Source of the DNA: Patescibacteria group bacterium
GTDB taxonomy: Bacteria; Patescibacteriota; Minisyncoccia; Phycocordibacterales; Phycocordibacteraceae
Length of the DNA stretch: 64,000 nucleotides
Assembly (NCBI GenBank): GCA_019744845.1
Contig: JAIETW010000002.1
Span: 69,759 to 133,758, forward strand
Reading direction: 5' to 3'
Shown here: in pieces, positions 1 to 21,470 of the stretch
How positions within the stretch are numbered: position 1 is the stretch's first letter
How the letters are laid out: each line of letters opens with the position of its first letter
The notes under the pieces: model-generated
What the model was told of the DNA's origin: nothing
Seen by the model: only the letters and a program-made list of their open reading frames with translations
Database searches by the model: none
Made by a program: the position numbers and the translations under genes

Positions 1-384
1 CGCACCAGTATCTCGCACTTCTCTTTTTCAAAGAAAAGCAGTGTGTCTCACACGATTCTGCGTTTAACGTTGATGAGGCGATCAGCGAGGCAGCACATCG
101 CATACAATCCCAGATTGGTCCGTGGGGTGACATATATCCAGAACAGGTCTCCTTTCTTCTTTATGGGGGATTCCAAGACCTTGTGTCGCAGGCACACATA
201 GACACCATACTTGCGCATCAAGAAGAAGACGGGGGATGGCGTCACGCACCGGAGGATCCAGGACCAAACCCCCACACGACCATATTGTCGGTGTGGGCAC
301 TCGCACAATGGGCAGACTTCTGTCCGTTTACGAACCAGCGCTAAGACTTTTGCGCGCGACTTCTAAAGCAGCTAAAATAGCCTG

Positions 385-1593
385 GTGACTCGCTCGTTCC
401 TCGCCTCTCTCCGTCGTTTTGGACCGCTTCTTCTTATTGTCCTCCTCATTGCCGTTGTGTGGGCAGTGATGGAATGGAAATCGTACTCATCGGATCCTAC
501 GTCGTATCCTGAAGTTCAGGAGATTGGTGTGCGATCCGATTGGCAGTTCCAAGAGTTGTCTACGTATTTTCAACGTCTTGCGGATGAGAAGGGGGCACTC
601 TACGCATATGAGGTATTGCGGTACGCCCCCTTCCCAGAAGGGGTAGATATCCATCTGCTTGGGCATGTGGTCGGAGACATGCTCTATGAGCAACAGGGAA
701 TTCAAGGGATTCACTCATGCACGCAAGAATTTAGAAATGCGTGCTCGCACTCGGTCGTGATCGGCATGCTTACCGAGTATGGGGAGGGTTCATTGTCTGA
801 CATTGCAGCAACCTGCATGGAAGCACCGGGAGGAAAGGGTGCATACACCATGTGTTTCCACGGTCTTGGTCACGGCGTGCTTGCATTTAATGGATACGAT
901 TTTGAGAAGGCAGTCGGTATGTGTGAGAGGACAGGAACGCCCGCCTACAACAACCGTGAAGCACATGAGTGCATTGGCGGCATGATGATGGAGATGATTG
1001 CAGGCGTACATGATAGGGAGGTATGGCAAACGCAAGTTGCACAATACTTCAAGAAGAATGACCCACTCTATCCATGTAATGCAGACTTCGTACCTGATGA
1101 GGCGCGATACACGTGTTACTCCTATCTCACTCCGTATTTATTTGGTCAGGCAAGTATAGATTTGGATGCACCTGATCCGGCACTTTATTCAACTGCGTTT
1201 TCATACTGCGAACCACTCTCTGGTTCCTCGCGAGAAGCATGCTATGGCGGGTTTGGGAAGGAATTCATCGTCCTCGCAAATGATCGCGATATTCGTACCG
1301 TTGGTGCACTTAGCACCGAACAACTTCAGAAGGTGCATGAGTGGTGTGAGTCTGCAGGTGTAGCTGACGGCGAGGTGTTTTGTAAGTCATCGGCACTTGC
1401 GTCTCTCTTTTGGGGAGGAGAAAGCGACCCGGAGGTTTCATTCGCATTTTGTGCACTTTCAGAACAGTCTACCCAAGAATCCTGCTATCGCGAGTTAGGG
1501 TCCGCCATTCGGTACTATCTTGGGAATACTGTTCGTGGAGACGCACTCTGTAGAAAGATGCCTGACCAGTATCGTAATTTCTGCAGTATATGA
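385..1593 (+). CDS. Exported/membrane-anchored Cys/His-rich protein, paralog 1 of six-member tandem family (C-x-H-G-x-G-H-G core)
   Basis: Long ORF with a GTG start and an N-terminal hydrophobic anchor (FGPLLLIVLLIAVVWAV). Contains CFHGLGHGVLAF and an upstream HLLGHVVG motif shared with the five downstream paralogs, and many conserved Cys. Confidence 0.6.
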   Translation: MTRSFLASLRRFGPLLLIVLLIAVVWAVMEWKSYSSDPTSYPEVQEIGVRSDWQFQELSTYFQRLADEKGALYAYEVLRYAPFPEGVDIHLLGHVVGDMLYEQQGIQGIHSCTQEFRNACSHSVVIGMLTEYGEGSLSDIAATCMEAPGGKGAYTMCFHGLGHGVLAFNGYDFEKAVGMCERTGTPAYNNREAHECIGGMMMEMIAGVHDREVWQTQVAQYFKKNDPLYPCNADFVPDEARYTCYSYLTPYLFGQASIDLDAPDPALYSTAFSYCEPLSGSSREACYGGFGKEFIVLANDRDIRTVGALSTEQLQKVHEWCESAGVADGEVFCKSSALASLFWGGESDPEVSFAFCALSEQSTQESCYRELGSAIRYYLGNTVRGDALCRKMPDQYRNFCSI

Positions 1594-2582
1594 ACCGTCT
1601 GTCGTATCTGATTCTTTTTGCTTTTCTTGTCGGCGTAGGAGTTTTTCTCTTCAGAGAAGTTCCGACGACTCGCTTTGGGGAGATTACTCCCATCACCGCG
1701 CAAGAAGTGCGGGCAGCAATAATTGCGTACACTGACGCACATGGTGCGAACAAGATGATGGAGGTGTTTCGGGAGTCATACAGCGCATCACATCCGAACA
1801 TACAACACAATGCGTCGCATCTTCTTGGAGAAGCGCTGTATCTTGCACTGGGGAGTAATGGTGTGTCTGAGTGTACGAGTGAGTATAACTTCGGGTGTTA
1901 TCATGGCCTCTTTGCAAAGGCGATTGCCACAGAAGGACTTGAAGTGGTGAAGGCTTTTGACGTCGCGTGCGCGAACTCTGATCGTGTGAGCGCATGTCAG
2001 CATGGACTTGGTCACGGGATTCTTGAGTACATGAGTGCAAAGAAGTTGGTGGACGCACTCAATGTATGCAGAGATCTCACGACGCCATCGGGTCCACTCG
2101 GAGGATGTGCCTCTGGAGTGTTTATGGAATATAACCACCCTCTTGTGTCAGAAGATGGGAATCAGCGTATTGAGGTGCGTCCGCTTGAGGACGAAGAGTT
2201 TCTTTACACGCCTTGTGAAGACGTGCCGTCAGAATTCAAAGCGGCTTGTTATCATTCGCTTCCACAGTGGTGGCGGCAGGTGGTGACTGCAAACGATTAT
2301 GCGCGTATGGCCGAACTCTGTGCGGTAATCCCGAATCAGTCGCACCAGCACGCGTGTATTGCAGGGCTTGGGTCAGTGATCCCTCCATCTCTTGATTACG
2401 ATGTGTCGTCTTCAATTGCGGCGTGCGACACTGTACCTTCCGAGCTGCTTCGTATTCAGTGCCTTGAAAGTGCATCTGGGGTGTTCTGGGGAAACATTAA
2501 TGATGTAGAAGGGGCGCAAGAGATATGTGAGGCGATGCCAGACGCAGATCGTACACGATGTCTGAATCTCATATATGAATGA
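1590..2582 (+). CDS. Exported Cys/His-rich protein, paralog 2 (GCYHGLF ... CQHGLGHGILEY ... GCASGVFMEYN)
   Basis: ATG overlaps the upstream stop (ATGA). Has an N-terminal TM/signal anchor. Motif order matches paralog 3 almost position by position. Confidence 0.65.
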   Translation: MNRLSYLILFAFLVGVGVFLFREVPTTRFGEITPITAQEVRAAIIAYTDAHGANKMMEVFRESYSASHPNIQHNASHLLGEALYLALGSNGVSECTSEYNFGCYHGLFAKAIATEGLEVVKAFDVACANSDRVSACQHGLGHGILEYMSAKKLVDALNVCRDLTTPSGPLGGCASGVFMEYNHPLVSEDGNQRIEVRPLEDEEFLYTPCEDVPSEFKAACYHSLPQWWRQVVTANDYARMAELCAVIPNQSHQHACIAGLGSVIPPSLDYDVSSSIAACDTVPSELLRIQCLESASGVFWGNINDVEGAQEICEAMPDADRTRCLNLIYE

Positions 2583-3585
2583 TGTTTCTTTGAAGCAGTA
2601 TGTGATTCTGACTATCGCGATACTTGTCATTGGCGGAATACTATTTGGCTCTCGCTTTTTCGGTCCTCAGTATGATCCACAAGACGAAGCGTATAACGCT
2701 TCGTACTGGTCGTACTCTATTCAGCGCTCTGGCGCGCCGAGCGCCTACCAAGAGTTCCTTGTTAGAAATTCAAGCACCGATTCTACGCGTCAGCATCTTG
2801 CCGCACACGTCTTTGGCGAAGTGCTATTCAAAATAGAAGGAGAGGAGGGCATTTCAGTGTGCGACGCCCAGTTTGGATTCGGGTGTTACCACGGCTTCTT
2901 TGGTCGTGCGATTTCGGAAGGGGGAGTGGAGTCAATCGCACGCCTTGATGCAGCATGTGTAAAGACGCACGGTACTCTTGGCACTGGATGTCAGCATGGA
3001 GTTGGGCACGGGATTCTTGAATACGTGGGCTATGACGCACTAGATGAGGCACTAGCCCTTTGTGCAGAAACCACACAGCTCACCTCGCGACTTGGCTGCA
3101 CCTCAGGCGTGTTCATGGAATACAATTCACCGCTTGCGGGTATTTCAGATGGACTTGTCCCGACGACACGTGCGCTTGATCCTTTGAACCTCTATGAGCC
3201 TTGTAATGAGGTGGAGGAGAAATATAAAGAGTCTTGTTTCCATGAACTTGGCGCATGGGTACTCTCTCATCATGCAGATGCTGCACGTGCAGGGTTCTGT
3301 GAAGGAATTGAAGGGAGAGGGCGTGAGTCATGTTTTGTGGGGATGGGTTCTGCCATTGCACACAAGGTTGGCCCATATCCAACACAGGGAATAGAGATGT
3401 GTGCGATGTTTGGGGAAAACGATATGCGTTCCTGCCGCGCAGGGCTTTCGTGGGGCTTTTTTACGGTCCCGGAGACCCGACTCCACGCACTGGAGGCGTG
3501 CGGGTATACTGAGGAGACACAGAAGAATGCATGCCTGCGCCTCGGCGATCTCACTGAAGGCCTGGATCCCACCTTTCCCTCATGA
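2575..3585 (+). CDS. Exported Cys/His-rich protein, paralog 3 (GCYHGFF ... CQHGVGHGILEY ... GCTSGVFMEYN)
   Basis: N-terminal hydrophobic anchor. Clear paralog of 1590-2582, sharing YxPCxxV and CxHxLxxWW/AW blocks. Confidence 0.65.
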   Translation: MNDVSLKQYVILTIAILVIGGILFGSRFFGPQYDPQDEAYNASYWSYSIQRSGAPSAYQEFLVRNSSTDSTRQHLAAHVFGEVLFKIEGEEGISVCDAQFGFGCYHGFFGRAISEGGVESIARLDAACVKTHGTLGTGCQHGVGHGILEYVGYDALDEALALCAETTQLTSRLGCTSGVFMEYNSPLAGISDGLVPTTRALDPLNLYEPCNEVEEKYKESCFHELGAWVLSHHADAARAGFCEGIEGRGRESCFVGMGSAIAHKVGPYPTQGIEMCAMFGENDMRSCRAGLSWGFFTVPETRLHALEACGYTEETQKNACLRLGDLTEGLDPTFPS

Positions 3586-4811
3586 CACCTGAACTTAGAA
3601 ATCTTGGCATAGGAATTCTCTTGCTCGTTGCCATTTTTGGCGGGTCCTACGCGTACGAGACTGCATTGTTTGGTCTTCTTCCACGCTCTCTTGAGCAACA
3701 TGCAACGGCGGTTATTTCTACCTGTGCATCAGAGTCATACCCGCCAAGTTGCTACGATCTGGAAATACCAAAACTCATGGATCAAGGTCTTTCAATGGAA
3801 GAAACTTTTGAGGTGACGAGATTGATACAGAACCAAGTTGATAACTACTTCTATTGTCACGTGCTTGGTCATAACGTGTCGGCAAAAGAGACCGCCAAGG
3901 ACCCACTCGCATGGACGGACGTGGTGGCCCGATGTCCGACTGGCATGTGTAGCAATGGATGCCTTCACGGTGCCGCACAGGAACGCTTTCGCGACGATGC
4001 ACTCACCGATGCGGAGATTCAGGAATTGATTCCTGAATTGAGTCAGATTTGTGAGCCAGGCAGTGGTCGTGATTTTACTGGTCTTGAACAGGCGAGTTGC
4101 TATCACTCACTTGGTCATCTCACCATGTACATAGGTGGAGGAAATATCACCACAGCGGTCGGCGTGTGTGATCAGATCGCAGTGAAAGATACGCATGACT
4201 ATACGCAGACCTGTTACGAGGGTGCATACATGCAGATCTTCCAACCACTTGAGCCGGAAGATTTTGCGCTCGTACAAGATGTCCCCGCAACGACGACCGT
4301 AGATGCCAAGGTGTTTTGTGATGGATTCAGCGGAGAACGTCGTGCCGCTTGTCACCGAGAGTCATGGCCTCTCTACCGAGACTCATTCTCTGAACCAGGA
4401 GGTATTGAAACCTTCTGTACGCTCGTTCCTGACCGAGTCTCACAGCAACGTTGTTACAATGCCATCTTCTATGTCCTGACCGCACAGTATTCATTTGACG
4501 AAGAGAAGGTCACGAATATGTGCGAGAGTGTGCCGGAAAAGCGCATGGGGCAGTGTTTTGGAAATGCAGCCTCACGAATGGTGGAGACCGATTATCGGTT
4601 GACGCCCAACGCCGTGCGTATCTGTGAGCGCGCACAAGAGCACGGAGTAGGTGATAGATGCTACGAGGAACTTGTGTTCTACTCCACGTTTAATTTTCAC
4701 GAAGGTTCAGAGGCGTTCCTCACACTTTGCCGCTCGCTTCCTGAGCCATGGCAGACGCAATGTGTAAACGGAGAGGGGAAGACGTTTCAGCCAAGTAAGA
4801 ACGATTATTAA
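3582..4811 (+). CDS. Exported Cys/His-rich protein, paralog 4 (divergent: CHVLGH ... GCLHGAAQERF ... CYHSLGHLTMY)
   Basis: N-terminal anchor (LGIGILLLVAIFGG). Retains the H-x-x-G-H and C-x-H-x-x-G-H modules of the family; 409 aa. Confidence 0.6.
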   Translation: MTPELRNLGIGILLLVAIFGGSYAYETALFGLLPRSLEQHATAVISTCASESYPPSCYDLEIPKLMDQGLSMEETFEVTRLIQNQVDNYFYCHVLGHNVSAKETAKDPLAWTDVVARCPTGMCSNGCLHGAAQERFRDDALTDAEIQELIPELSQICEPGSGRDFTGLEQASCYHSLGHLTMYIGGGNITTAVGVCDQIAVKDTHDYTQTCYEGAYMQIFQPLEPEDFALVQDVPATTTVDAKVFCDGFSGERRAACHRESWPLYRDSFSEPGGIETFCTLVPDRVSQQRCYNAIFYVLTAQYSFDEEKVTNMCESVPEKRMGQCFGNAASRMVETDYRLTPNAVRICERAQEHGVGDRCYEELVFYSTFNFHEGSEAFLTLCRSLPEPWQTQCVNGEGKTFQPSKNDY

Positions 4812-4814
4812 TAT

Positions 4815-6278
4815 ATGAAAGAGTTTCTTACTCGTCGGAACATACTCATCGCGTTAGTTATCATCGCGGGGGGAGTGGCATACTACCTTTCACAAGTCCC
4901 ACCACCAAATACAATTATCTTGAGGGAAGATGGATGGCATCCGGAGTCACTTGTGGTAGAGCCAGACACGACGGTGATCTTCGTGAATAAGACATCTCAC
5001 TCATTCTGGCCCGCATCAAATAGCCACCCACAGCACGAACGGTATCCTGAGTTTGATGCAGGTCGCCCGATGGCACCCGGAGAGTCGTGGTCGTTCACAT
5101 TTACGCGACCCGGGAAGTGGGTATTCCATGATCACCTTCGTTCTTCGTATGTGGGGAGTATTGCGGTTGGGCAAGAGTACGCAGATTACGATTGTTTGAC
5201 TGATATTGCCGATGCATCTGTCTCAGAGAAGCGTGTGTGTTGGGGTGAGAAGTTGTATGAAGAGCTGCGAGAGAATGGCGCAGCCGCCGCTTTTCGCTTA
5301 TTCGCGAATTTCTATGAGTCAGACCCAGATTTCACGAAAGTAGGGTGCCATGTAATTGCACACCAGCTTGGTGACAATGCGTATGGAGAGTATCTGCGAC
5401 AGGGGAAGAAACTTTCGGTGCTTGAGTTTCCACCAGAGTCAGTGTATTGCGGGTATGGGTATTACCACGGTATTTTTGAACACCTCATTCGCGACAATCC
5501 AGACTTTGAAATGGCAAATGCGTTTTGTCAGGATCTCGTGGCTACGTATGAAGATACGGTGCCACGAATTCGTCTCAATTGTTATCACGCGATAGGGCAC
5601 GGGTTTGTGCCGGAGCCGAGCGATGTGGAGCAATGGGGGGATGTACAAAAGATGACTGAACCCGCGATTGCCGCCTGCGCACGACTCCCTGTGTATGATG
5701 AGCGATCTGAGTGTTTCCAAGGAACATTCAATGTGATTGGAGATTGGATGTGGAACAATCAGTTTGGCTTACGGTTTAGTGAAAGTGATCCGCTTTCAGT
5801 CTGTCGCTTGTATGAAGGGGAGATTTCAGAGGCATGTTATTACGAAGTCGCGATGCGTCTTCTTCCGTACGGTGACGATGATCTTTCACGCATCTACAAT
5901 CTCTATGTGGCGCAGATAGAAAATGATCAGATTGCAGGAATGGTAATTAACTCTGCTGCAGCCGGAGTCATTGGAACGAATATTACTGACGACAATTTCA
6001 TCCCATTTCTCCATACCTGCCGTACGTTGCCCGCACGTGTGCAAGAGGACTGTCTCAAAGGGCTTACCGGAGGGTTCGTGGCACATGGAGAGCCGGAAAA
6101 CGAATATATAAAGGCAATTGATTTCTGTAGTGACGAAGAGCTCACTCCCGACGAGAAAGATATTTGTTATTGGAATATTACTCGTACCTTCAAGGACTCA
6201 TACTCAAAAGAAAAGGTGGAGCAGGTATGTACCGGAGTTGAGGTTGAATACCAGCACTATTGCTCCTACGAATCATGA
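4815..6278 (+). CDS. Exported protein: N-terminal Cys-less cupredoxin-like His-rich domain fused to Cys/His-rich family module (paralog 5; CYHAIGHGF)
   Basis: N-terminal anchor. Residues ~35-115 carry FWPASNSHPQHERYPEFD ... WVFHDHL, the same domain as 7694-8080. The C-terminal part has CHVIAHQLG, YYHGIF and CYHAIGHG. Confidence 0.65.
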   Translation: MKEFLTRRNILIALVIIAGGVAYYLSQVPPPNTIILREDGWHPESLVVEPDTTVIFVNKTSHSFWPASNSHPQHERYPEFDAGRPMAPGESWSFTFTRPGKWVFHDHLRSSYVGSIAVGQEYADYDCLTDIADASVSEKRVCWGEKLYEELRENGAAAAFRLFANFYESDPDFTKVGCHVIAHQLGDNAYGEYLRQGKKLSVLEFPPESVYCGYGYYHGIFEHLIRDNPDFEMANAFCQDLVATYEDTVPRIRLNCYHAIGHGFVPEPSDVEQWGDVQKMTEPAIAACARLPVYDERSECFQGTFNVIGDWMWNNQFGLRFSESDPLSVCRLYEGEISEACYYEVAMRLLPYGDDDLSRIYNLYVAQIENDQIAGMVINSAAAGVIGTNITDDNFIPFLHTCRTLPARVQEDCLKGLTGGFVAHGEPENEYIKAIDFCSDEELTPDEKDICYWNITRTFKDSYSKEKVEQVCTGVEVEYQHYCSYES

Positions 6279-7681
6279 AGCGAGTCGCTATTGTAGCCGG
6301 GCTTCTTGTACTGATCGCGCTGCTCGCATTCATCCCTCCTCAAAACACCATCGTCCTTAAGGACGATGGTTTTCACCCTCGCGTTCTCACCGTATCGGTG
6401 GGGGACACGGTTACGTTCACGAATGCACGTGACAAGTACTTCTGGCCTGCATCAGACTTTCATCCCACACATGCGCTGTACCCTGAGTTTGATGCGAAGG
6501 AGCCGCTTGCGCCTGGTCAGTCCTATGCCATTACCTTTACCGAGCCAGGCACCTATCCTTTTCATGATCATCTTGCTGCGTTCTATTTTGGCATCGTACA
6601 AGTACAAGACGCAGATGGCCGTGTTGTAGATGACTGTATGGAGAAAGGAGGGCAGTTCCAGTGTTGGCAGAACAAGCTGTTTCTTACACTTGCCACTGAA
6701 GGTATAGATCGTACATATGAAGAAGTCGCCACACTTTACGAAGAAGATCCGGCATTCTCAGGTTCATGCCATTACGCAGCGCACAATATAGGACTCGCAA
6801 GCTACCAGTTTTATCAGAAAGATACGGATTTTATTCTCTCCCCACGAGCCACTGCATGTGCCGCCGGTTTCTATCATGGATTCATGGAGGGATACATAGG
6901 TGCTACCGGAGACATAGAGGGCGCTGCGGAAGTTTGCGATACCATCGGCGCACGCATAGGTGAAGAAGCTCCCGATGCGCGCCTCCAGTGCTATCACGGC
7001 ATTGGACACGGTGCGGTAGAAAGTGCGGTTGCGACTTCAGGTTCGTTTGGGAGTCAGCAAAGCTTTGTGGACGCCGCACTTTCTTCGTGTGAGGAGGTGG
7101 CAGACGGAGAGCAAGAACTCTACCGCTGCGTATCTGGGGTATTCAATGGAATCGCAAATTTCTACATCATCGGTGCCTACGGTCTTTCGGTGAAGGATGA
7201 CCCTCTGTTGCTCTGCGCGAATCAGCCAGAAGTATACAAAGAAGCGTGCTACGGAAACATGAACTCAGTAGTGTATTACGAAGCCAGGGGAGAGTTTACC
7301 CCTGCAGTGGAAGAAGTATTTTCTATTCCTGACGTCACCGAACGTCCGAAAGCACTTGAGTACCTTCTTCTTCTGTTCGCGCTTAATCACATTCAGGATG
7401 AGTCGCTCGCACCGCTCATACAAGAGTGTCAGGCGCTGCCGGATTCCTATGTCGCCTCATGTCTTGGTGGGTTGGTACGCGGGCTTCTTGAACACGGTAT
7501 TCCAGGGAAAGAGTATGAAAAAGCCTTGAATCTGTGCCGTGAATCAACTCTCACCGCAGCAGAGCGTGATGCGTGTTATGCCATCGTACTTACGGGCGCG
7601 GATGGATGGTACGGGGCTGAGAAAGTGAAGGAGATTTGTGCCTCCGTACCAGTGCAGGAACAGGCGTATTGCACGCCGTGA
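6275..7681 (+). CDS. Exported protein: N-terminal cupredoxin-like His-rich domain fused to Cys/His-rich family module (paralog 6; CYHGIGHGAVE)
   Basis: Start set at the internal ATG (MKRVAIV...) that overlaps the upstream stop as ATGA; the track ORF begins at 6260. Carries FWPASDFHPTHALYPEFD ... YPFHDHL, then CHYAAHNIG, FYHGFMEGY and CYHGIGHG. Confidence 0.65.
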   Translation: MKRVAIVAGLLVLIALLAFIPPQNTIVLKDDGFHPRVLTVSVGDTVTFTNARDKYFWPASDFHPTHALYPEFDAKEPLAPGQSYAITFTEPGTYPFHDHLAAFYFGIVQVQDADGRVVDDCMEKGGQFQCWQNKLFLTLATEGIDRTYEEVATLYEEDPAFSGSCHYAAHNIGLASYQFYQKDTDFILSPRATACAAGFYHGFMEGYIGATGDIEGAAEVCDTIGARIGEEAPDARLQCYHGIGHGAVESAVATSGSFGSQQSFVDAALSSCEEVADGEQELYRCVSGVFNGIANFYIIGAYGLSVKDDPLLLCANQPEVYKEACYGNMNSVVYYEARGEFTPAVEEVFSIPDVTERPKALEYLLLLFALNHIQDESLAPLIQECQALPDSYVASCLGGLVRGLLEHGIPGKEYEKALNLCRESTLTAAERDACYAIVLTGADGWYGAEKVKEICASVPVQEQAYCTP

Positions 7682-7693
7682 TAGAGTAGTTCC

Positions 7694-8080
7694 ATGAATA
7701 CAAAAGTGGCAATTGTGGTCGGTGTGCTCATACTCGCGGCTGCGGGATGGTACGTGTCACAGGAAAAACCTGTCACACCACAGGTACAGGTAAAAGTGCC
7801 AGAAGGGGCGATAGTAGTAGAGCTGACAAAAGAGGGCTTTTCTCCGTCAGAGCTTACTATCGCGAAAGGAGAGAGCGTGACATTTCGTACCACCGGAACG
7901 GATCTGTACTGGCCTGCATCAAATCTCCACCCGTCTCACGGAATCTATCCAGAGTTTGATCCTTTGAAGCCACTTCAACCGACCGAAGTGTGGAGTTTTA
8001 CCTTTGATCAGGTAGGGGAGTGGAAGTACCACGATCATCTTGCGCCCTATTTTACCGGCGTCATAACAGTGACTGAATAA
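7694..8080 (+). CDS. Membrane-anchored standalone cupredoxin-like His-rich domain protein (128 aa)
   Basis: N-terminal TM (VAIVVGVLILAAAGWYV). YWPASNLHPSHGIYPEFD ... WKYHDHLAPYFTGVITV aligns with the N-terminal domains of the two preceding genes. The beta-sandwich cupredoxin ligand positions are occupied by His/Asp rather than Cys/Met. Confidence 0.6.
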   Translation: MNTKVAIVVGVLILAAAGWYVSQEKPVTPQVQVKVPEGAIVVELTKEGFSPSELTIAKGESVTFRTTGTDLYWPASNLHPSHGIYPEFDPLKPLQPTEVWSFTFDQVGEWKYHDHLAPYFTGVITVTE

Positions 8081-8565
8081 TGCGCTCAATCGTACTTCTT
8101 TTGCTCGTGTTCCCATTGTCGGTCAGCGCACATGCGTTTGGCTTTTCTCACGAGACGACGGTAAACGGATATCAAGTTGATATTGGTTACAGTACCGCGG
8201 CGCCGACACCTAATGAGTCAGTGATCTTTGACTTCAATCTCCCGGCGGTTCATGCAGAGGTGCCATATTCGGATGTATGGGTACGAGTGACCAAAGAAGA
8301 TGGCACAGTGGTACTTGCGACTGGGCTCTACAACGCTCGCTTCGGTGGTCCACGTCTGAGCTACATGTTCCCTGAAGACGGACGCTACACTATAAGTGTG
8401 AGGTACGAGCAGGAATCAGAGGTTCTGCTTGAAACAGAGTTTCCCATCACGGTTGTGCCTGCATCTTCAGGTTCTATTCCGTATACCGAGCACATTCCGG
8501 GCCTTGTCGTAGGCCTCCTCCTCAGTGTGGGGGTACTGACCTGGTGGCAAAGGGGAAAGAAGTAG
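8080..8565 (+). CDS. Small secreted protein with C-terminal sorting-signal-like tail (IPYTEH + hydrophobic segment + RGKK)
   Basis: Signal peptide (MRSIVLLLLVFPLSVSAHA). The C-terminus reads SIPYTEHIPGLVVGLLLSVGVLTWWQRGKK-stop. ATG overlaps the upstream stop. Confidence 0.5.
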   Translation: MRSIVLLLLVFPLSVSAHAFGFSHETTVNGYQVDIGYSTAAPTPNESVIFDFNLPAVHAEVPYSDVWVRVTKEDGTVVLATGLYNARFGGPRLSYMFPEDGRYTISVRYEQESEVLLETEFPITVVPASSGSIPYTEHIPGLVVGLLLSVGVLTWWQRGKK

Positions 8566-8588
8566 GAAGAGGATGCTACACTAGCGGC

Positions 8589-9608
8589 ATGAAAAAAATA
8601 CGCGTCGCAATTAATGGATTTGGTCGTATCGGTCGTGCGTTTGTCCGTCAGGTGTGGAATCGTCCGGAAATTGAGTTAGTGGCTATTAATGATCTGGGGT
8701 CTCCAGAAACCGCCGCCTATCTTTTGAAATACGACACCGTGTACGGACGTGCACCATTTTCGGTTGAGCGTCGCGATGGCGTATTGGTGATTAACGGGGC
8801 AGACGTAAAACTTTTTGCAGAAAAGGATCCCATGGCGCTTCCATGGAAGGATCTGGCGATTGATGTGGTGGTTGAAGCGACTGGCGTATTTAACGATTAC
8901 GAAAAGGCGACTGTCCATATTAATGCAGGCGCACGTCGCGTCGTCATTACCGCACCCGCCAAGGGAGATGAAGGGCCAGGGAAGGGAGCAACGGTGCTCA
9001 TGGGAGTAAACGAAGAACTGTTGAAGACCTGTCCAGTGACGAGTAACGCGTCATGTACCACTAACTCAGGCAGTCCGGTAATTGCGATCTTGGATGAGAC
9101 GGTAGGCATTGAGCACGCCATGCTCTCCACCACTCATGCCTATACAGCAACGCAGGCAATTGTAGATGGCGCGTCTAAGAAAGATTTGCGTGAAGGACGT
9201 GCGGCTGCACAAAACATCATTCCATCCTCTACGGGTGCAGCGATTGCGGTGACGAAGGCGTATCCATCACTTGCGGGGAAGTTTGATGGCATCTCACTTC
9301 GTGTGCCAGTACCCGTTGGCTCTATTGCTGATATCACTTTTGTTGCAAAGCGTGATACGAGCGCAGAAGAGATCAATGACATTCTTCGCACAGCTGCAGG
9401 GGAGGCACGTTGGCAGGGTATCTTTGCGGCAACCGATGAGCCGCTTGTTTCAAGTGACATCATTGATGACCGCCATGCGTCTATCGCAGATCTTGCGATG
9501 ACACGCGTCGTTGATAAGCGACTTGTAAAAGTGCTTGCATGGTACGACAACGAAGCAGGATATACGCACACGCTTGTGGAGCATGTGATTAAGGCAGCGA
9601 ATGCGTAG
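8589..9608 (+). CDS. gap: Glyceraldehyde-3-phosphate dehydrogenase
   Basis: MKKIRVAINGFGRIGR Rossmann N-terminus, active-site SNASCTTNS, and the C-terminal WYDNEAGY motif. Start moved to the internal ATG at 8589. Confidence 0.92.
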   Translation: MKKIRVAINGFGRIGRAFVRQVWNRPEIELVAINDLGSPETAAYLLKYDTVYGRAPFSVERRDGVLVINGADVKLFAEKDPMALPWKDLAIDVVVEATGVFNDYEKATVHINAGARRVVITAPAKGDEGPGKGATVLMGVNEELLKTCPVTSNASCTTNSGSPVIAILDETVGIEHAMLSTTHAYTATQAIVDGASKKDLREGRAAAQNIIPSSTGAAIAVTKAYPSLAGKFDGISLRVPVPVGSIADITFVAKRDTSAEEINDILRTAAGEARWQGIFAATDEPLVSSDIIDDRHASIADLAMTRVVDKRLVKVLAWYDNEAGYTHTLVEHVIKAANA

Positions 9609-9613
9609 ACCGT

Positions 9614-10081
9614 ATGAAATTGTTCATCGCCACTGATCACGGGGGATACGAACTCAAGGAAAGCTTGAAGCCGTTTCTTACGGGCTTGGGCCATGAGGTG
9701 GAAGATTGCGGTGCGTTCACGTTTGATAAGGAAGACGATTATCCTGACTTCATTACGCCCTGTGCAGAAAAGGTGGCAGCGACTCCTGGAAGTATGGGCA
9801 TCATCATTGGTGGTTCCGGCCAGGGAGAAGCCATGGCCGCAAACCGGGTGAAGGGTGCTCGTGCAGCCGTGTTTTATGGAGAACCAACTCGGAAACAGAC
9901 GGATAGCGAAGGAAAAGAGATAGATATGATTGCCTCCACTCGGGACCATAACGATGCCAACATCCTTTCTCTAGGAGCTCGGTTTCTGACTGAGGAGGAG
10001 ATACGGGGGAAAATTGAGCAATTCCTTGCCACTCCGTTTTCCAACCATCCTCGCCACCAGCGTCGGATCAATAAGTTCTAA
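9614..10081 (+). CDS. rpiB: Ribose-5-phosphate isomerase B (RpiB/LacAB family)
   Basis: MKLFIATDHGGYELKE N-terminus, an internal GIIIGGSGQGEAMAANR motif, ~155 aa. Confidence 0.85.
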   Translation: MKLFIATDHGGYELKESLKPFLTGLGHEVEDCGAFTFDKEDDYPDFITPCAEKVAATPGSMGIIIGGSGQGEAMAANRVKGARAAVFYGEPTRKQTDSEGKEIDMIASTRDHNDANILSLGARFLTEEEIRGKIEQFLATPFSNHPRHQRRINKF

Positions 10082-10088
10082 GAATATG

Positions 10089-10124
10089 GATACCGTACGA
10101 ATGATGGAGGTACGGTATACTTTT
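10089..10124 (+). terminator. Perfect 9-bp stem hairpin (ATACCGTAC/GTACGGTAT) followed by ACTTTT between rpiB and the first rpe-like gene; possible weak terminator or attenuator
   Basis: Inverted repeat read directly from the sequence, with an 11-nt loop and a short T-run. Confidence 0.3.
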
Positions 10125-10129
10125 AAGCA

Positions 10130-10855
10130 ATGGACGTGAAGGTCGTCCCCGCCGTGCTCCCCACGTCTCGCGACGATCTCGAGCGGCAGCTTAGTGAACT
10201 CTCTGGTGTCACTGACGAAGTGCAGTTGAATATTGTAGATGGAAAGTTCGCCGCTCCGGCGACGTGGCCATACGTGCTTCAAAGTCATGACCTAGAACAT
10301 TTGATTGCACAGCATCGCATGCTGCCAGGGTGGGGGAAGTTTCGCTTTGAAGTAGAGTTGCAGGTGAAGCGTCCTGAAGATGTAGTGGGGACCTGGATTG
10401 CACTTGGCGCGACGCGGCTCACTATTCACGTAGATAGTATTGGTACCCCTGATCGCGTTCTTCGTGATCTTGAGGTGCACTACGGGCACGATAAAGATTT
10501 TGCACCGGATCTTCTCTCCGTAGGATTTGCGCTTGGTGTTGATACTGATTTTAAAGTGGTTGAACCATACATTGATCGTTTGGATTATGTGCAGTTCATG
10601 GGTGTGTCTCGTCTTGGGAAGCATGGGGAACCATTTGAATCAAAAATCATTGATCGCATTAAAGAGTTCCGTAAGAAGCATCCAAGTGTCGCAGTACAGG
10701 TAGATGGGGGAGTATCACGCGCGACGGCCCCTGCGCTTCTTGCCGCAGGGGTCTCTCGTTTGATTGTGGGAAGTGATCTGTGGCGTGCGGAAGATAAGAT
10801 GACTCGGTACAAGGAAATCAAAGTACTTGCTGAGCAGTACGGTATTTATGAGTAG
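10130..10855 (+). CDS. Ribulose-phosphate 3-epimerase family protein (divergent paralog)
   Basis: N-terminal VVPAVLP ... QLNIVDGKFAAP and C-terminal VQVDGGVS follow the Rpe TIM-barrel layout and parallel the next gene. Confidence 0.6.
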   Translation: MDVKVVPAVLPTSRDDLERQLSELSGVTDEVQLNIVDGKFAAPATWPYVLQSHDLEHLIAQHRMLPGWGKFRFEVELQVKRPEDVVGTWIALGATRLTIHVDSIGTPDRVLRDLEVHYGHDKDFAPDLLSVGFALGVDTDFKVVEPYIDRLDYVQFMGVSRLGKHGEPFESKIIDRIKEFRKKHPSVAVQVDGGVSRATAPALLAAGVSRLIVGSDLWRAEDKMTRYKEIKVLAEQYGIYE

Positions 10856-10902
10856 CATGGGGATTTCGGTATTCGTGGTCATGCAGGTAGAATGGCGGCA
10901 AC

Positions 10903-11559
10903 ATGATTGAGATAGTCCCGACGGTCGTCCCGGAGTCTCTACAGGACATCGTTGATACGGTGAATCGGTATAAGTCATTCGCGACTCGTATTCACGTAGA
11001 CGTAGCAGATGGAGTGTTCGCACCGAACACCACCTGGATGCCAGGAGAGGGAGAGATGCTTCCTGAGGGAATGGAGTACGAGATCCACATGATGGTGGCG
11101 GACCCGCATACCATGGGACTTCAGTATGCAAAGGCAGGAGCACATTCTTTGATTGGACACGTAGAAGCGTTTGACGGCGCAGAGAATGCGGCACGTGCAT
11201 ATGACGCCTGGCGCGCGGCAGGTATTTCTGAAGTACAGGCAGCGGCCCTCTTCCAGACCAAGGTAGAGGATCTTGCTGCGTACGTGCCGATCAGTGACCT
11301 GATTCTTCTTATGACTATTGCCTCTATCGGGGTACAGGGCATTCCGTTTGAAGAAGAGGGCATTACCCGTATACAGAAGTTCCATGCACTCTGTCCCGAC
11401 ACCAAGATTGCCGTAGATGGGGGAGTGTCCATGAAAAACATTGATCGCTTGGTAGGAGCCGGCGCACGACACTGCTGTGTGGGCTCTGCGATCTCTCGCA
11501 CCGAGGACCCTGCAAAGTCCTACCAGGACCTCATCGCACTCGGGAACACTGCGCTATAA
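10903..11559 (+). CDS. rpe: Ribulose-phosphate 3-epimerase
   Basis: IHVDVADGVFAPNTT (the H-x-D-x-x-D-G-x-F-x-P-N motif), a C-terminal IAVDGGVS, and ~218 aa. Confidence 0.75.
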   Translation: MIEIVPTVVPESLQDIVDTVNRYKSFATRIHVDVADGVFAPNTTWMPGEGEMLPEGMEYEIHMMVADPHTMGLQYAKAGAHSLIGHVEAFDGAENAARAYDAWRAAGISEVQAAALFQTKVEDLAAYVPISDLILLMTIASIGVQGIPFEEEGITRIQKFHALCPDTKIAVDGGVSMKNIDRLVGAGARHCCVGSAISRTEDPAKSYQDLIALGNTAL

Positions 11560-11569
11560 TCCTTTCTAT

Positions 11570-12409
11570 ATGGCCCTCACCGACGAGACCCTACAGGCAC
11601 TTGAAGACAAGGCGCGAGAGATTCGCATTACTGTCCTCCGGATGTTGAATGCCGCAAAGAGCGGCCACACGTCGGGACCTCTCGGCATGGCTGATATTTT
11701 CACTGCGCTCTATTTTCATAGCGCAAAACATGATCCGAAGAATCCTGACTGGGCAGAGCGTGACCGCATCGTGCTTTCAAACGGACACATCACGCCGATT
11801 CGTTACGCCACTATGGCGCATGCAGGATACTTCCCAGTTGAAGAGTGTTTGACGCTTCGTAAGCTCGGCAGTCGTCTTCAGGGACATCCTGAGCGCGAAA
11901 AGCTTCCTGGTCTTGAAAGCACCTCAGGTCCACTTGGCTCAGGACTTTCGCAGGCATCTGGTATGGCGTACGCGCTTCGCATGGATAAAAATAATGCACG
12001 CGTCTTCTGTTTGACCTCAGACGGAGAACAGCAGGAAGGAAACACCTGGGAGGGTGCAATGTTTGCAGGCAAGTATCGCCTCTACAACCTCATCCAGATC
12101 ATGGACCGTAACAACATTCAGATTGAAGGAAACACAGAGGACATCATGCCGCTTGAACCCCTTGCGGATAAGTATCGTGCATTCAATTGGCACGTGATTG
12201 AAATTGATGGGCACAACATGCGTGACATCATTGATGCGATTGATGAAGCAAAAGCAGTGCGCGAGAAGCCAACACTTATTCTTGCCCGCACCATTCCTGG
12301 TAAGGGAGTGAAAGATATTGAGTACGATTACAAATGGCACGGGAAGCCACCGTCTGATGAAGAGCTTCCGCGCTTCATTGAGCAGGTAGAAGCCACCAAA
12401 ACCGTATGA
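11570..12409 (+). CDS. Transketolase, N-terminal (TPP-binding) subunit of split enzyme
   Basis: GHTSGPLGMADIFTALYF and GSRLQGHPE motifs; GDGEQQEGNTWEGAMFAGKY TPP-binding region. Start moved to the ATG at 11570 just after the upstream stop. Confidence 0.9.
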   Translation: MALTDETLQALEDKAREIRITVLRMLNAAKSGHTSGPLGMADIFTALYFHSAKHDPKNPDWAERDRIVLSNGHITPIRYATMAHAGYFPVEECLTLRKLGSRLQGHPEREKLPGLESTSGPLGSGLSQASGMAYALRMDKNNARVFCLTSDGEQQEGNTWEGAMFAGKYRLYNLIQIMDRNNIQIEGNTEDIMPLEPLADKYRAFNWHVIEIDGHNMRDIIDAIDEAKAVREKPTLILARTIPGKGVKDIEYDYKWHGKPPSDEELPRFIEQVEATKTV

Positions 12410-13392
12410 TTAATCCACTCGCAAAACTTGTTCCAGGACTTCTTGAGGGGAAGCCGGAAAAGAAACCGACCCGTGATGGGTTTGGAAACGGTACGGTAGA
12501 AGCAGGGAAGGAGAATCCAAATGTGGTGGTGCTCTCTGCAGACCTCGGTGACTCTACGCGTGCCGCGTGGTTCCAGAAGGAATTCCCTGACCGCTATGTA
12601 GAAGTAGGGGTCGCAGAACAGAACCTTGCGACGGTGGGTTCTGGCATGGCAAATGAAGGAAAGATTCCTTTCATTGCGTCATACGCTGCTTTTTCTCCCG
12701 GACGTAACTGGGAGCAGATTCGCACCACGATTGCGCTCAATAATATGCCGGTAAAAGTGTGTGGTATGCATGCCGGGATTCAAACGGGTCCCGATGGCGC
12801 AACGCACCAGATGCTTGAAGACATCGCGCTTATGCGTGCGATGCCAAACATGATCGTGATGGTGCCAGGAGATGCAGAGGAAGGAAAGAAATGTGCCGTT
12901 GCGGCTGCGCGCAACAATCGTCCGACCTACATTCGCTATGGACGTGCAAGTGAGCCTGTATTCACGACCCCTGAAACACCGTTTGAGGTAGGGAAGGCAC
13001 TCAACCTTTGGGAGAGTGCGAATCCAAAGGTTGCGATTTTTACGACGGGCTCTATTGCATACCAGGCACTTGTTGCCGCAAAGACGCTCGCTGAACAAGG
13101 GGTGGACGTCATCGTCACCCATTTCCACACAGTGAAGCCGATTGATCGTGAGGCGATTATCACTGCCGCAAAGAACATTGGGAAGATTATTACTCTGGAA
13201 GAGCACCAGACCACCGGAGGATTTGGAAGTGCGGTCGCGGAGGTGGTGACTGAAGAATATCCCGTGCAGGTGATTCGTATGGGAGTACAGGATGAGTTCG
13301 GGCAGTCGGGAGAAGCGGACGAACTTATGGAGCACTACAAACTCACCGCTCCCCACATCGTGGCGAAAGTGAAGAGTGTGACGGGCGTATAA
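12406..13392 (+). CDS. Transketolase, C-terminal (pyrimidine-binding) subunit
   Basis: Pyrimidine-binding and C-terminal domain motifs (GVAEQNLATVGSGMA; IRYGRASEP). ATG overlaps the upstream stop. Confidence 0.9.
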   Translation: MINPLAKLVPGLLEGKPEKKPTRDGFGNGTVEAGKENPNVVVLSADLGDSTRAAWFQKEFPDRYVEVGVAEQNLATVGSGMANEGKIPFIASYAAFSPGRNWEQIRTTIALNNMPVKVCGMHAGIQTGPDGATHQMLEDIALMRAMPNMIVMVPGDAEEGKKCAVAAARNNRPTYIRYGRASEPVFTTPETPFEVGKALNLWESANPKVAIFTTGSIAYQALVAAKTLAEQGVDVIVTHFHTVKPIDREAIITAAKNIGKIITLEEHQTTGGFGSAVAEVVTEEYPVQVIRMGVQDEFGQSGEADELMEHYKLTAPHIVAKVKSVTGV

Positions 13393-19637: not shown

Positions 19638-21470
19638 ATGAACTTATCTATGAAAACTTCACACCTCTCAGTTGCTGGGCTCGTGTTTCTCGCCGTTGTG
19701 GCGATCGTGCAGTTCTCTCCGACACAGCTCGCGATGGCGCAGTGTGGCGGGGCGGGGAGCTTCAGTGGATTTAGTGGGCCAAGCTACATCGTGATAGATG
19801 GGATTATGGGTGATGTGTATTACTCGGGGAATATGGGTGGAGGGGTGGAGTGGGATCCAGTATTCCATGCCATGTTTGGAGATACTGTTAATCAACTTCC
19901 TTCAAAAGACTTCTTCAGCTTTCTCTTCCCAGAGAATATCTTTGCGCAGTGTGGGAACATCAACCCTCCTCCCTCATCTCCATCCGTATCGTTGACCGCA
20001 ACCCCCGGATCAATTAATTCTGGAGGAAACTCAGTACTCACCTGGAGCGGACAAAATGTGGTGTCTTGTACGGGGACTGGTTTCTCCACGGGAGGTAATA
20101 CCTCTGGTTCCGTGAACGTATCCCCTGATGACACCACGACCTACAGCATTACGTGTTCCACCACCGGCGGCGGATCAGGGAACTGGGAACTCAGTGACTC
20201 ATACACGACTGATTACTCGTGTCCTTTGTCGAGCGACAGAGTGGATCGTCCACACCGCCATGTCCCAGACTGTCCGACAGGCTCACCTGAAGGAAATGCG
20301 TGTAGCCCAGGTGGCACCAGTTGTAAGGTGAACTATGCGTCGGGGTGTAACGTAATTTCCGATATTTATTCATGTGAGGCAGATGGTGGTGTAGGTCAAA
20401 CAGTCAGTGATACCGCAACCGTTACCGTGAGTGCGTGTACGCCTTCGTACAACTCCTCACGGTGGTACACCGGTGGTACAGAAGTCGCAGTCTCCTCTCT
20501 TGAGATGGGAAATAGCGCAGCTGACTGTCGCACAATAACTCCAGGCAATATTGAGTACACATCCTGGAATCGTCAGGTGCAGTACCAAGACGGAGGTGTT
20601 GCTACGTATGATCCAGTGCGGACCATGTGTTGGTACTACAATGGTGCCACAGGCACGGAAAGCAAGCCAGGACAGAGTCAGGGTGATTGGTACTTCCACT
20701 ACGACTCAGGAAGTACGTGTACAGTTCCGGCAGTACCGCAGTGTTCAAACGGCGCGGACGATGATGGCGACGGGTACGTTGACTATACGGAGGACGGAGG
20801 ATGTGAGGACGGACTTGATGACGATGAAATTGGCGATACGCTGCCGCAGTGTAGCGATGGACAAGATAACAACAGCGCAGGCGGATCAGATTATCCAAAC
20901 GATCCATCATGTACCAGTGCAGATGATGATAGCGAAGATGGAGTGACTGCAGGCGTATCTTGTTCTGTAGATTCTTCATCAGTTAGCGTGGGCGGTACGA
21001 CCACCTATCGTGCAACGGCAAATAATGGCGCAAGCGCACCATTTACTTGGACCCCTTCGGGTCAGACACTTTGTACCGGAGGTGCAAACAACACCTGTAC
21101 CTTCCCAGGCACTGGTCCGTACACCATGTCAGTACGCGCGCAGGGTGCCACGAGCCCTGCCTCGTGTCCGATTGTGACTGCAGGATGTGCAGGCCCAACC
21201 GAAGTCTCTATCACTGCAAATGGAGAAGGGGATGATGTGCGTGTGAAAGATGGGGCTGCGGCGCTCATTGAATGGGAGGTTACGACGGCAGCAGCAAGCT
21301 GTACCGTGACGGAGAACGGTGCACTTCTCACGACGCTTACACCAAACGCATGTAATGCGACTGGACAGATGAGTCGCACGATTAGTACGCAGACTACCTA
21401 CCTTCTCACCTGTGGAAGTGAGACGGACCTAGTGATCGTGAACGTAGATACGAGCCTGCTTGAGTTCTAG
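19638..21470 (+). CDS. Large secreted Cys-rich protein with MopE-like C-x-D-G-x-D-N-D repeats and conserved C-terminal module (paralog A)
   Basis: Signal peptide. CSNGADDDGDGYVDY ... CSDGQDNNSAGGSDYPNDPSC repeats. The C-terminal ~180 aa are highly similar to the C-terminus of 23563-25755. Confidence 0.6.
   Translation: MNLSMKTSHLSVAGLVFLAVVAIVQFSPTQLAMAQCGGAGSFSGFSGPSYIVIDGIMGDVYYSGNMGGGVEWDPVFHAMFGDTVNQLPSKDFFSFLFPENIFAQCGNINPPPSSPSVSLTATPGSINSGGNSVLTWSGQNVVSCTGTGFSTGGNTSGSVNVSPDDTTTYSITCSTTGGGSGNWELSDSYTTDYSCPLSSDRVDRPHRHVPDCPTGSPEGNACSPGGTSCKVNYASGCNVISDIYSCEADGGVGQTVSDTATVTVSACTPSYNSSRWYTGGTEVAVSSLEMGNSAADCRTITPGNIEYTSWNRQVQYQDGGVATYDPVRTMCWYYNGATGTESKPGQSQGDWYFHYDSGSTCTVPAVPQCSNGADDDGDGYVDYTEDGGCEDGLDDDEIGDTLPQCSDGQDNNSAGGSDYPNDPSCTSADDDSEDGVTAGVSCSVDSSSVSVGGTTTYRATANNGASAPFTWTPSGQTLCTGGANNTCTFPGTGPYTMSVRAQGATSPASCPIVTAGCAGPTEVSITANGEGDDVRVKDGAAALIEWEVTTAAASCTVTENGALLTTLTPNACNATGQMSRTISTQTTYLLTCGSETDLVIVNVDTSLLEF

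Follow-up and report, generated by a model that had tools for sequence, protein, structure and literature searches.

A Patescibacteria operon-like unit of five-histidine helical-repeat proteins, Cys-less cupredoxin-like domains and an N-terminal-His protein: a candidate extracytoplasmic metal system

Patescibacteria comprise a large share of bacterial diversity, with genomes of about 0.6-1 Mb and a surface biology that is mostly uncharted. The closest described relatives in architecture of the proteins treated here belong to several separate systems. Helicobacter cysteine-rich proteins (Hcp) are exported alpha/alpha-repeat proteins with about 34-36 residues in each repeat, in which a Cys pair is thought to staple the helix hairpin. 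EfeO combines an N-terminal cupredoxin ('Cup') domain with a helical M75 metal-binding domain. A His residue that becomes N-terminal upon signal-peptide cleavage is a Cu or Ni chelator in several unrelated folds (PMC12537917), and membrane-anchored YcnI binds Cu(II) through His1 and a Glu, with a conserved Trp nearby (PMC8424229). From Patescibacteriota, a single-cupredoxin 'plastocyanin' has been taken as the electron carrier to NirK (PMC12931201). In this study, we analysed an operon-like unit of eight consecutive, tightly packed open reading frames (ORFs), numbered g1 to g8, at positions 385-8565 of the + strand in a 64,000-nucleotide (nt) window from the metagenome-assembled genome of a Patescibacteria group bacterium (assembly GCA_019744845.1, contig JAIETW010000002.1, positions 69,759 to 133,758). 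The window means this whole stretch, and coordinates are counted from its first letter.

The unit has components of three types. Six genes (g1-g6) encode paralogs of a helical-repeat module with a centre of five conserved His residues; a Cys-less cupredoxin-like domain is found at the N-termini of g5 and g6 and alone in g7; and g8 encodes an Ig-like beta-sandwich protein with a predicted mature N-terminal His. The main component stands outside described families and solved structures and the three-component operon matches no described system, a newness that rests on absent matches, while g7 and g8 vary on kinds already known, the first as a cupredoxin lacking a type-1 site and the second as an Ig-like protein with an N-terminal His. 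Our leading, still tentative, reading is that g1-g8 form an extracytoplasmic, membrane-anchored, histidine-ligated metal system.

A sequence-only reading of this DNA had described seven coupled + strand genes at 385-8080, each with a signal anchor, six of them being large paralogs of 330-487 amino acids (aa). All seven ORFs were recovered, overlapping or near-abutting, and the six-member paralog family was borne out: tblastn connects g1, g2, g3, g5 and g6, and g4 is recognised by the family hidden Markov model (HMM) alone. The expansion is therefore real, and only the end of the unit had to be moved, since g8 carries it to 8565. Adjacent genes are joined by ATGA overlaps, one 8-nt overlap and one 1-nt overlap, or separated by gaps of 3 and 12 nt. 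At its N-terminus, every operon protein carries one hydrophobic segment with K/R in front of it, and the positive-inside rule fits N-terminal anchors. The Cys content, put at 15-25 per protein in that reading, was counted as 14-20; Cys accounts for 3.94% of residues in g1-g6 vs 0.90% in 46 other long ORFs of the window.

The Cys residues of g1-g6 are periodic. Their spacing alternates between about 11 and about 23 residues in every paralog, so that seven to ten pairs recur every 34 residues or so, and the sequence around each pair follows a-x-x-x-C-x(6-12)-C-[YFQ]-x-G-[LVI]-G. An AlphaFold2 (AF2) model of g3, built with 40 homologs, is all-alpha and confident (predicted local distance difference test, pLDDT, 93.7; predicted template-modelling score, pTM, 0.88), with a transmembrane (TM) helix at residues 4-28. 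In this model the first Cys of a pair closes one helix and the second lies in the opening turns of the next, and the paired residues, 8-13 positions apart, are placed across helix-loop-helix hairpins. The motifs that the sequence-only reading had listed as four ordered blocks are all present, yet they are successive copies of one Cys-pair hairpin repeat and not separate blocks: GCYHG, CxHGxGHG and GCxSGVF are consecutive versions of a helix-loop-helix unit of about 34 aa. When the N-terminal and C-terminal halves of the g3 alignment were compared (HMM-HMM, E = 0.0028), CQHGVGHG...C...GCTSGV was placed over CFVGMGSA...C...SCRAGL. The proposed C-x-H-G-x-G-H-G core is complete to its final GHG in five of the six paralogs, and g4 reads CYHSLGHL instead.

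As modelled, the g1-g6 module is a new alpha-solenoid of about seven repeats of ~34 residues. It has no Pfam or NCBIfam match, and Pfam scans of g1-g6 gave no SEL1 or TPR profile at E ≤ 1. Searches of the paralog profile against PDB sequences returned nothing for the module, with weak plastocyanin matches from the cupredoxin part only, and Foldseek with the g3 model returned nothing at E ≤ 1e-3, the TM-scores of ~0.2 indicating likeness to generic alpha-solenoids only. No description of the five-His module family was found in the literature. The suspicion that the module lies outside characterised families was thus upheld by the profile searches and by the structural model alike.

Cys and His statistics were taken from an alignment of 395 distinct family members drawn from 76 loci. 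The positions C96/C104 are both Cys in 260 members, neither in 111 and single in 6, and for C242/C253 the corresponding numbers are 296, 95 and 0; the total number of Cys is even in 366 of the 395. Because Cys residues are lost as pairs and occur in even numbers in proteins whose topology faces outside, they are probably structural disulfide staples and not metal ligands. Of the earlier suggestion of disulfide- and/or metal-rich ectodomains, the first half is thereby favoured. The absence of CxxC, the VKOR fusion of one family member and the DsbA-like neighbours of the array in seven loci agree with this. A metal-thiolate cluster was considered and rejected, as the two Cys of a pair come and go together and some paralog classes do without entire pairs.

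A different set of residues forms the candidate metal site. In the g3 type (41 sequences), the invariant positions are 14 Cys, several Gly and the five residues H74, H78, H106, H141 and H145, whose codons in g3, together with that of E82, lie within 2794-3009 (+). Across all paralog classes, H78, H106, H141 and H145 are conserved in 94-99% of members and H74 in 79%, so that the Cys/His blocks persist once orthologs from other genomes are added. Exactly five His occur among positions 74, 78, 82, 106, 141 and 145 in 361 of the 395 members (91%). Tyr at position 74, the g4 type, is always accompanied by H82 (58/58), and H74 goes mostly with E or D at position 82. Residues 74, 78 and 82 are spaced i, i+4, i+8 on one helix and 141 and 145 are spaced i, i+4 on another, with 106 on the intervening helix, and the His-bearing helices carry conserved Gly residues (G81, G103, G142, G144 and G146). 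In every paralog there are exactly two HxxxH motifs and one C-x-H-[GAS]-x-G-H motif. The resulting ladder (HxxxH, H, HxxxH, plus an acidic residue) is located near the N-terminal end of the solenoid, and we infer from the sequences that it is a candidate histidine-ligated metal centre for one or two ions; a constant number of ligands and a compensatory Y74/H82 swap would be expected from a shared binding site. A metal or cofactor site had been suspected in the C-x-H-G-x-G-H-G string; its His residues do belong to the candidate site, which extends over three helices and is not formed by the string alone.

The six module genes differ in length and in what they carry besides the module. The 'type A' protein g1 (385-1593, +) is a membrane-anchored protein of 402 aa with 16 Cys, identified as an ORF with a family HMM match; its HxxxH motifs are HLLGH and HGLGH, its core is CFHGLGHG, and its orthologs elsewhere are 38-58% identical and mostly occupy the first place of the array. 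The short paralog g2 (1590-2582, +; 330 aa, 14 Cys or 7 pairs) shares 32% identity with g3 and is optional outside this genome. The short 'type B' protein g3 (2575-3585, +; 336 aa) served as the reference for alignment and AF2 modelling; 139 homologs were found, every one of them named 'hypothetical'. The 'type C' protein g4 (3582-4811, +; 409 aa, 20 Cys) has the Y/H-swapped centre, with the motifs HVLGH and CYHSLGHL, and its orthologs (40-65% identity) are placed after the g3 type. In g5 (4815-6278, +; 487 aa) and g6 (6275-7681, +; 468 aa), which are 33% identical, a Cys-less cupredoxin-like N-terminus (~4920-5174 and ~6350-6610, respectively) is fused to the five-His module. The module part of g5 is recognised by the family HMM. 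NCBI starts g6 at the ATG at 6275 (468 aa), and a TTG at 6260 is also open (473 aa). The products of g1-g5 are named 'hypothetical protein' by NCBI (K2Y00_03535-03555) and those of g6 and g7 'cupredoxin domain-containing protein'.

The third cupredoxin-like domain is the stand-alone protein g7 (7694-8080, +), which is membrane-anchored, 128 aa long and Cys-less, with four invariant His in the pattern WPAS-x2-H-P-x-H ... H-D-H. That the operon holds three such domains had already been noticed from the letters, and the profile comparisons agree. The PF13473 scores of 29.4 and 27.9 bits just exceed the cut-off of 27 (g6, E = 8e-7; g7, E = 2e-6), g7 matches the g5 region 4920-5174 with E = 3e-21, and the family profile searched against PDB matches the C-terminal cupredoxin of NirK (E = 6.7e-8), amicyanin (1.4e-6) and plastocyanins too. 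Among 144 sequences, W-P-A-S-x2-H-P-x-H, F-D and H-D-H are invariant and no Cys or Met column reaches 30%. The first His lies opposite the upstream His ligand of type-1 sites and H-D-H falls over H-C-T of amicyanin and H-C-H of NirK; the Asp thus aligns with the amicyanin ligand Cys92, and no conserved His/Met loop follows downstream. With Asp in place of the Cys ligand, a type-1 blue-copper site is, judging from these alignments, impossible and the domains cannot be blue-copper electron carriers, while a type-2-like site made of the four invariant His plus the Asp is plausible.

The cupredoxin profile matches at least 2,449 database proteins, and many Cys-less members are called 'plastocyanin' by the Joint Genome Institute (JGI), for example P0309, P0312, P0331, P0373 and P0381, despite their WPAS..HP.H...HDH pattern. 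If the single-cupredoxin 'plastocyanin' of PMC12931201 belongs to this Cys-less family, its assignment as a carrier would be doubtful without the type-1 Cys. Metabolic reconstructions in which such a 'plastocyanin' serves as carrier should check for the Cys ligand.

The last gene, g8 (8080-8565, +), encodes 161 aa with a signal peptide, a His predicted to open the mature chain and a membrane anchor at the C-terminus. In two sets of homologs (24 and 21), A17-H18 is invariant after an AxA-type site at which cleavage is predicted, and it is followed by S-x-E seven residues past the His, a conserved Asp and Trp, a short linker, a C-terminal TM helix and a basic tail. The AF2 model is an Ig-like sandwich (pLDDT 86.8), and profile searches against PDB and Pfam yielded weak filamin, PKD, Big_3_5 and YtkA-like matches only, which are Ig-like. 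On paper, and by analogy with YcnI, g8 would be a mono-histidine-brace-like chelator acting through His1 and the conserved Glu; its membership in the YcnI/CopC group is not demonstrable. The second conserved His of a canonical brace is absent from the g8 homologs.

The sequence-only reading had asked for the same array in other genomes, and it is found phylum-wide, so the array is not peculiar to this genome. The family profile retrieves 5,840 cluster representatives (50% identity) at E ≤ 1e-3 and 1,213 at E ≤ 1e-30, and the five-His module family is almost entirely confined to Patescibacteria. One species-representative genome collection yielded 76 loci, whose record titles name mostly Patescibacteria (Paceibacterota, Kaiser-, Nomura-, Taylor-, Colwell-, Yanofsky-, Gottesman-, Davies- and Doudnabacteria, and many auto-labelled 'Saccharibacteria'). 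Arrays contain 3-12 module genes according to our own HMM mapping. A cupredoxin-like domain lies within 10 kb in 67 of 80 loci, and a g8-like gene is present in 32, never without the cupredoxin. Orthologs of the window paralogs share 40-65% identity, compared with 20-30% among the paralogs themselves. A recurrent arrangement is g1 type, (g2), g3 type, g4 type, (fusions), cupredoxin, g8; a minimal set of the g1, g3, g4, g8 and g7 types is found in L002, L010 and L039. The complete 721-kb genome CP174359 devotes ~14 kb (~2%) to its array, which is flanked by GAPDH-RpiB-RPE just as in the window. Because the ancient paralog types hold a fixed order, the sequences suggest that they are non-redundant, acting as distinct subunits or with distinct specificities, possibly within a hetero-oligomer.

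About a dozen array records bear other labels, namely Gammaproteobacteria, Acidimicrobiales, Verrucomicrobiia and Nanoarchaeia metagenome-assembled genomes (L034, L036, L044, L046, L051, L054, L063, L069, L072, L076 and L077). Given the identical gene arrangement, these contigs are probably mis-binned or mislabelled Patescibacteria.

Mining of neighbour families over the 76 loci gave recurrent families that mostly have no Pfam match, none of which occurs in this window. A membrane-anchored two-Cys protein of ~176 aa with a weak cupredoxin signature (PF13473, E = 0.011) was found in 20 loci, often just 5' of the first module gene (L002:8267-8803 and L014:3713-4222); the upstream gene of the window is different. 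A His-rich polytopic membrane protein of ~315 aa and a single-anchor partner of ~160 aa, without Pfam match, lie in or beside the arrays in 11 loci (for example L014:9012-10471, L027:12467-13887, L031 and L035), and in some lineages this pair might work with the system at the membrane, for instance as a permease. A 560-aa protein recurs beside the arrays in 10 loci.

In the proposed metal system, His1 of g8 and the cupredoxin domains would capture a transition-metal ion at the cell surface and hand it over; the ion would then pass to the five-His centres of the solenoid paralogs, or these would cooperate in binding it, and the centres might serve as catalytic or redox sites or as a metal sink. 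The metal would probably be copper, a claim we hold less firmly than that of metal binding itself. Two points favour copper: copper-protein classes are resembled by two of the three component types, and the sites are extracellular and made of His only, which is typical for Cu(II). Nickel, zinc or iron may be the metal instead, and N-terminal-His proteins are reported to bind Ni too (PMC12537917).

Several observations weigh against the metal system, and some against copper in particular. Neither the operon nor the window holds a metal transporter, a metallochaperone of a known family or a known cuproenzyme. Few copper-requiring enzymes are known from Patescibacteria, which would leave a large copper system unexplained. 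The PF13473 scores barely reach the threshold, g8 has no match to the DUF1775 or CopC profiles, and it is as close to generic FN3 and macroglobulin domains as to the copper proteins CrdA and PmoD. M181 and E182, beside the five-His centre, lose their conservation in the g5 and g6 types of the family alignment, and a conserved His ladder may also have a catalytic or structural role.

The best surviving alternative, which we nevertheless regard as rather unlikely, is that these are structural or adhesive surface proteins, the stapled solenoids forming an envelope scaffold or host-attachment layer and the His ladder being a structural hydrogen-bond or Zn site. It would agree with a fold likeness that is limited to protein-binding ARM, HEAT or TPR-like repeats, with membrane-anchored ectodomains in every member, with an architecture that parallels the disulfide-bridged Sel1-like proteins of Helicobacter, with arrays that vary from 3 to 12 genes, and with giant proteins (P0121, of 3580 aa, P0123, P0140, P0161 and P0200) that carry 7-14 matched module stretches in tandem. 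Adhesins usually vary at their surface, however, whereas here five His are near-invariant and even the Y74/H82 exchange keeps their number; the linkage to a four-His cupredoxin and an N-terminal-His protein is constant, and the types and order of the paralogs are conserved rather than diversifying fast.

It is unlikely that the proteins are enzymes acting on envelope or host polymers such as peptidoglycan or polysaccharide, in the manner of a hydrolase or a lytic polysaccharide monooxygenase (LPMO), metal-dependent or not, with the His cluster as active site and the other components as auxiliaries. The proteins do face outside, LPMOs are characterised by an N-terminal His carried on a beta-sandwich (PMC8424229, PMC10952591), and the giant P0121 joins about seven modules to a terminal GH3 glycosidase (E = 6e-61) and LRV/HEAT repeats. 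The GH3 fusion is, however, a single case among the four giants scanned, the others having no Pfam domain; g8 falls short of a canonical brace by its second His, HExxH or any other known catalytic motif is missing, and no carbohydrate-binding or known catalytic Pfam domain is present in the operon. A related long shot, no better placed, would take the five-His solenoid, as a new metalloprotein fold with a His-only mono- or binuclear copper (or iron) centre, the four-His cupredoxin and the N-terminal-His protein together as an extracellular redox enzyme complex, either an oxidase consuming O2 or peroxide or an oxidative polymer cleaver, and as a core trait of the phylum. Such a complex, if real, would have a role in oxygen protection, or in attack on or feeding from the host surface.

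A thiol-disulfide relay, with redox-active Cys pairs shuttling electrons or oxidising equivalents at the membrane surface, seems very unlikely. In its favour, P0139 (446 aa) begins with a VKOR domain (E = 2e-21), which takes the place of the anchor and is fused to a g3-type module, and DsbA-like thioredoxins adjoin the arrays in seven loci (for example L028:12612-13331). The VKOR fusion is one among 150 members listed, DsbA-like queries gave no match in this window, and both VKOR and DsbA are equally expected near any disulfide-rich substrate; the Cys pairs themselves are 8-13 residues apart, never CxxC, and can be missing as whole pairs, as structural staples can. Haem c, a thioredoxin-like relay and a zincin peptidase were each rejected, as the motifs CxxCH, CxxC and HExxH are absent from g1-g8. 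Binding of haem b, another tetrapyrrole or a quinone between His pairs on Gly-rich helices is hardly credible: the conserved Gly would suit a cofactor pocket, or simply tight packing, but neither CxxCH nor any likeness to haem proteins in sequence or fold is seen, and haem synthesis is generally absent from these organisms.

The surroundings of the unit are of a different nature. At 3-343 (+) lie the last 112 aa of a gene truncated by the window start, with a 'DGGW' motif and a very weak match to a squalene-hopene-cyclase repeat (E = 0.075). Directly 3' of g8, and partly overlapping it, a sugar-phosphate block extends over 8544-13392 with GAPDH, RpiB, two ribulose-phosphate 3-epimerase (RPE) paralogs (10130-10855 and 10903-11559) and a split transketolase (11477-12409 and 12406-13392); these flanking genes recur singly beside the array in seven to nine other loci. 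Beyond the transketolase follow FBPase, PfkB and aldolase, and then translation and replication genes, the remainder of the window being housekeeping. No significant Pfam match was obtained for three large ORFs, at 19638-21470, 23563-25755 and 41144-42556 (610, 730 and 470 aa). A scan of the window found promoter-like sites to be rarer than in shuffled sequences and terminator-like sites to number 15 vs 7.3 in shuffles, most of them inside coding sequence and on either strand, and both scans are uninformative.

The array costs ~8 kb here, a notable investment for a small genome. Thousands of family clusters have no Pfam model, structure or literature, and the ligand-like residues are among their most conserved features. 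If the metal reading is true, the module would represent a new histidine-ligated metal-binding fold and would provide a first handle on metal and redox chemistry at the episymbiont surface; the eventual function may nevertheless fall within a known class such as metal trafficking.

Compared with described systems, each component shows a partial likeness. LanC-like alpha/alpha-barrel Zn proteins were suggested by the G-x-x-G and C-H-G-like repeats of g1-g6 and were rejected, as no LANC_like profile matched and LanC did not appear in the fold-search descriptions. With the Hcp/Sel1-like proteins there is a parallel in architecture: the periodic Cys pairs, the all-alpha model, the loss of Cys as pairs and the even counts fit a bridging of hairpins in the present proteins as well, as far as sequence and model can tell. 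Like EfeO, g5 and g6 place an exported non-blue cupredoxin-like domain before an all-helical domain with conserved metal-type ligands. Their membership in EfeO/M75 was rejected (no PF09375 match at E ≤ 1, no HxxE context, no imelysin or EfeO among the fold-search descriptions), and the helical part here differs in being a disulfide-stapled solenoid without EfeU or EfeB partners. With the blue-copper cupredoxins (amicyanin, plastocyanin, and the domains of NirK and multicopper oxidases), g7 and the N-termini of g5 and g6 share fold and profile but lack the His-Cys-His-Met set. Finally, g8 resembles the YcnI (DUF1775), CopC and 'anglerase' domains in joining a signal peptide and a predicted N-terminal His of the mature chain to a beta-sandwich, and it shares with YcnI also a conserved Glu, a conserved Trp and a C-terminal membrane anchor.

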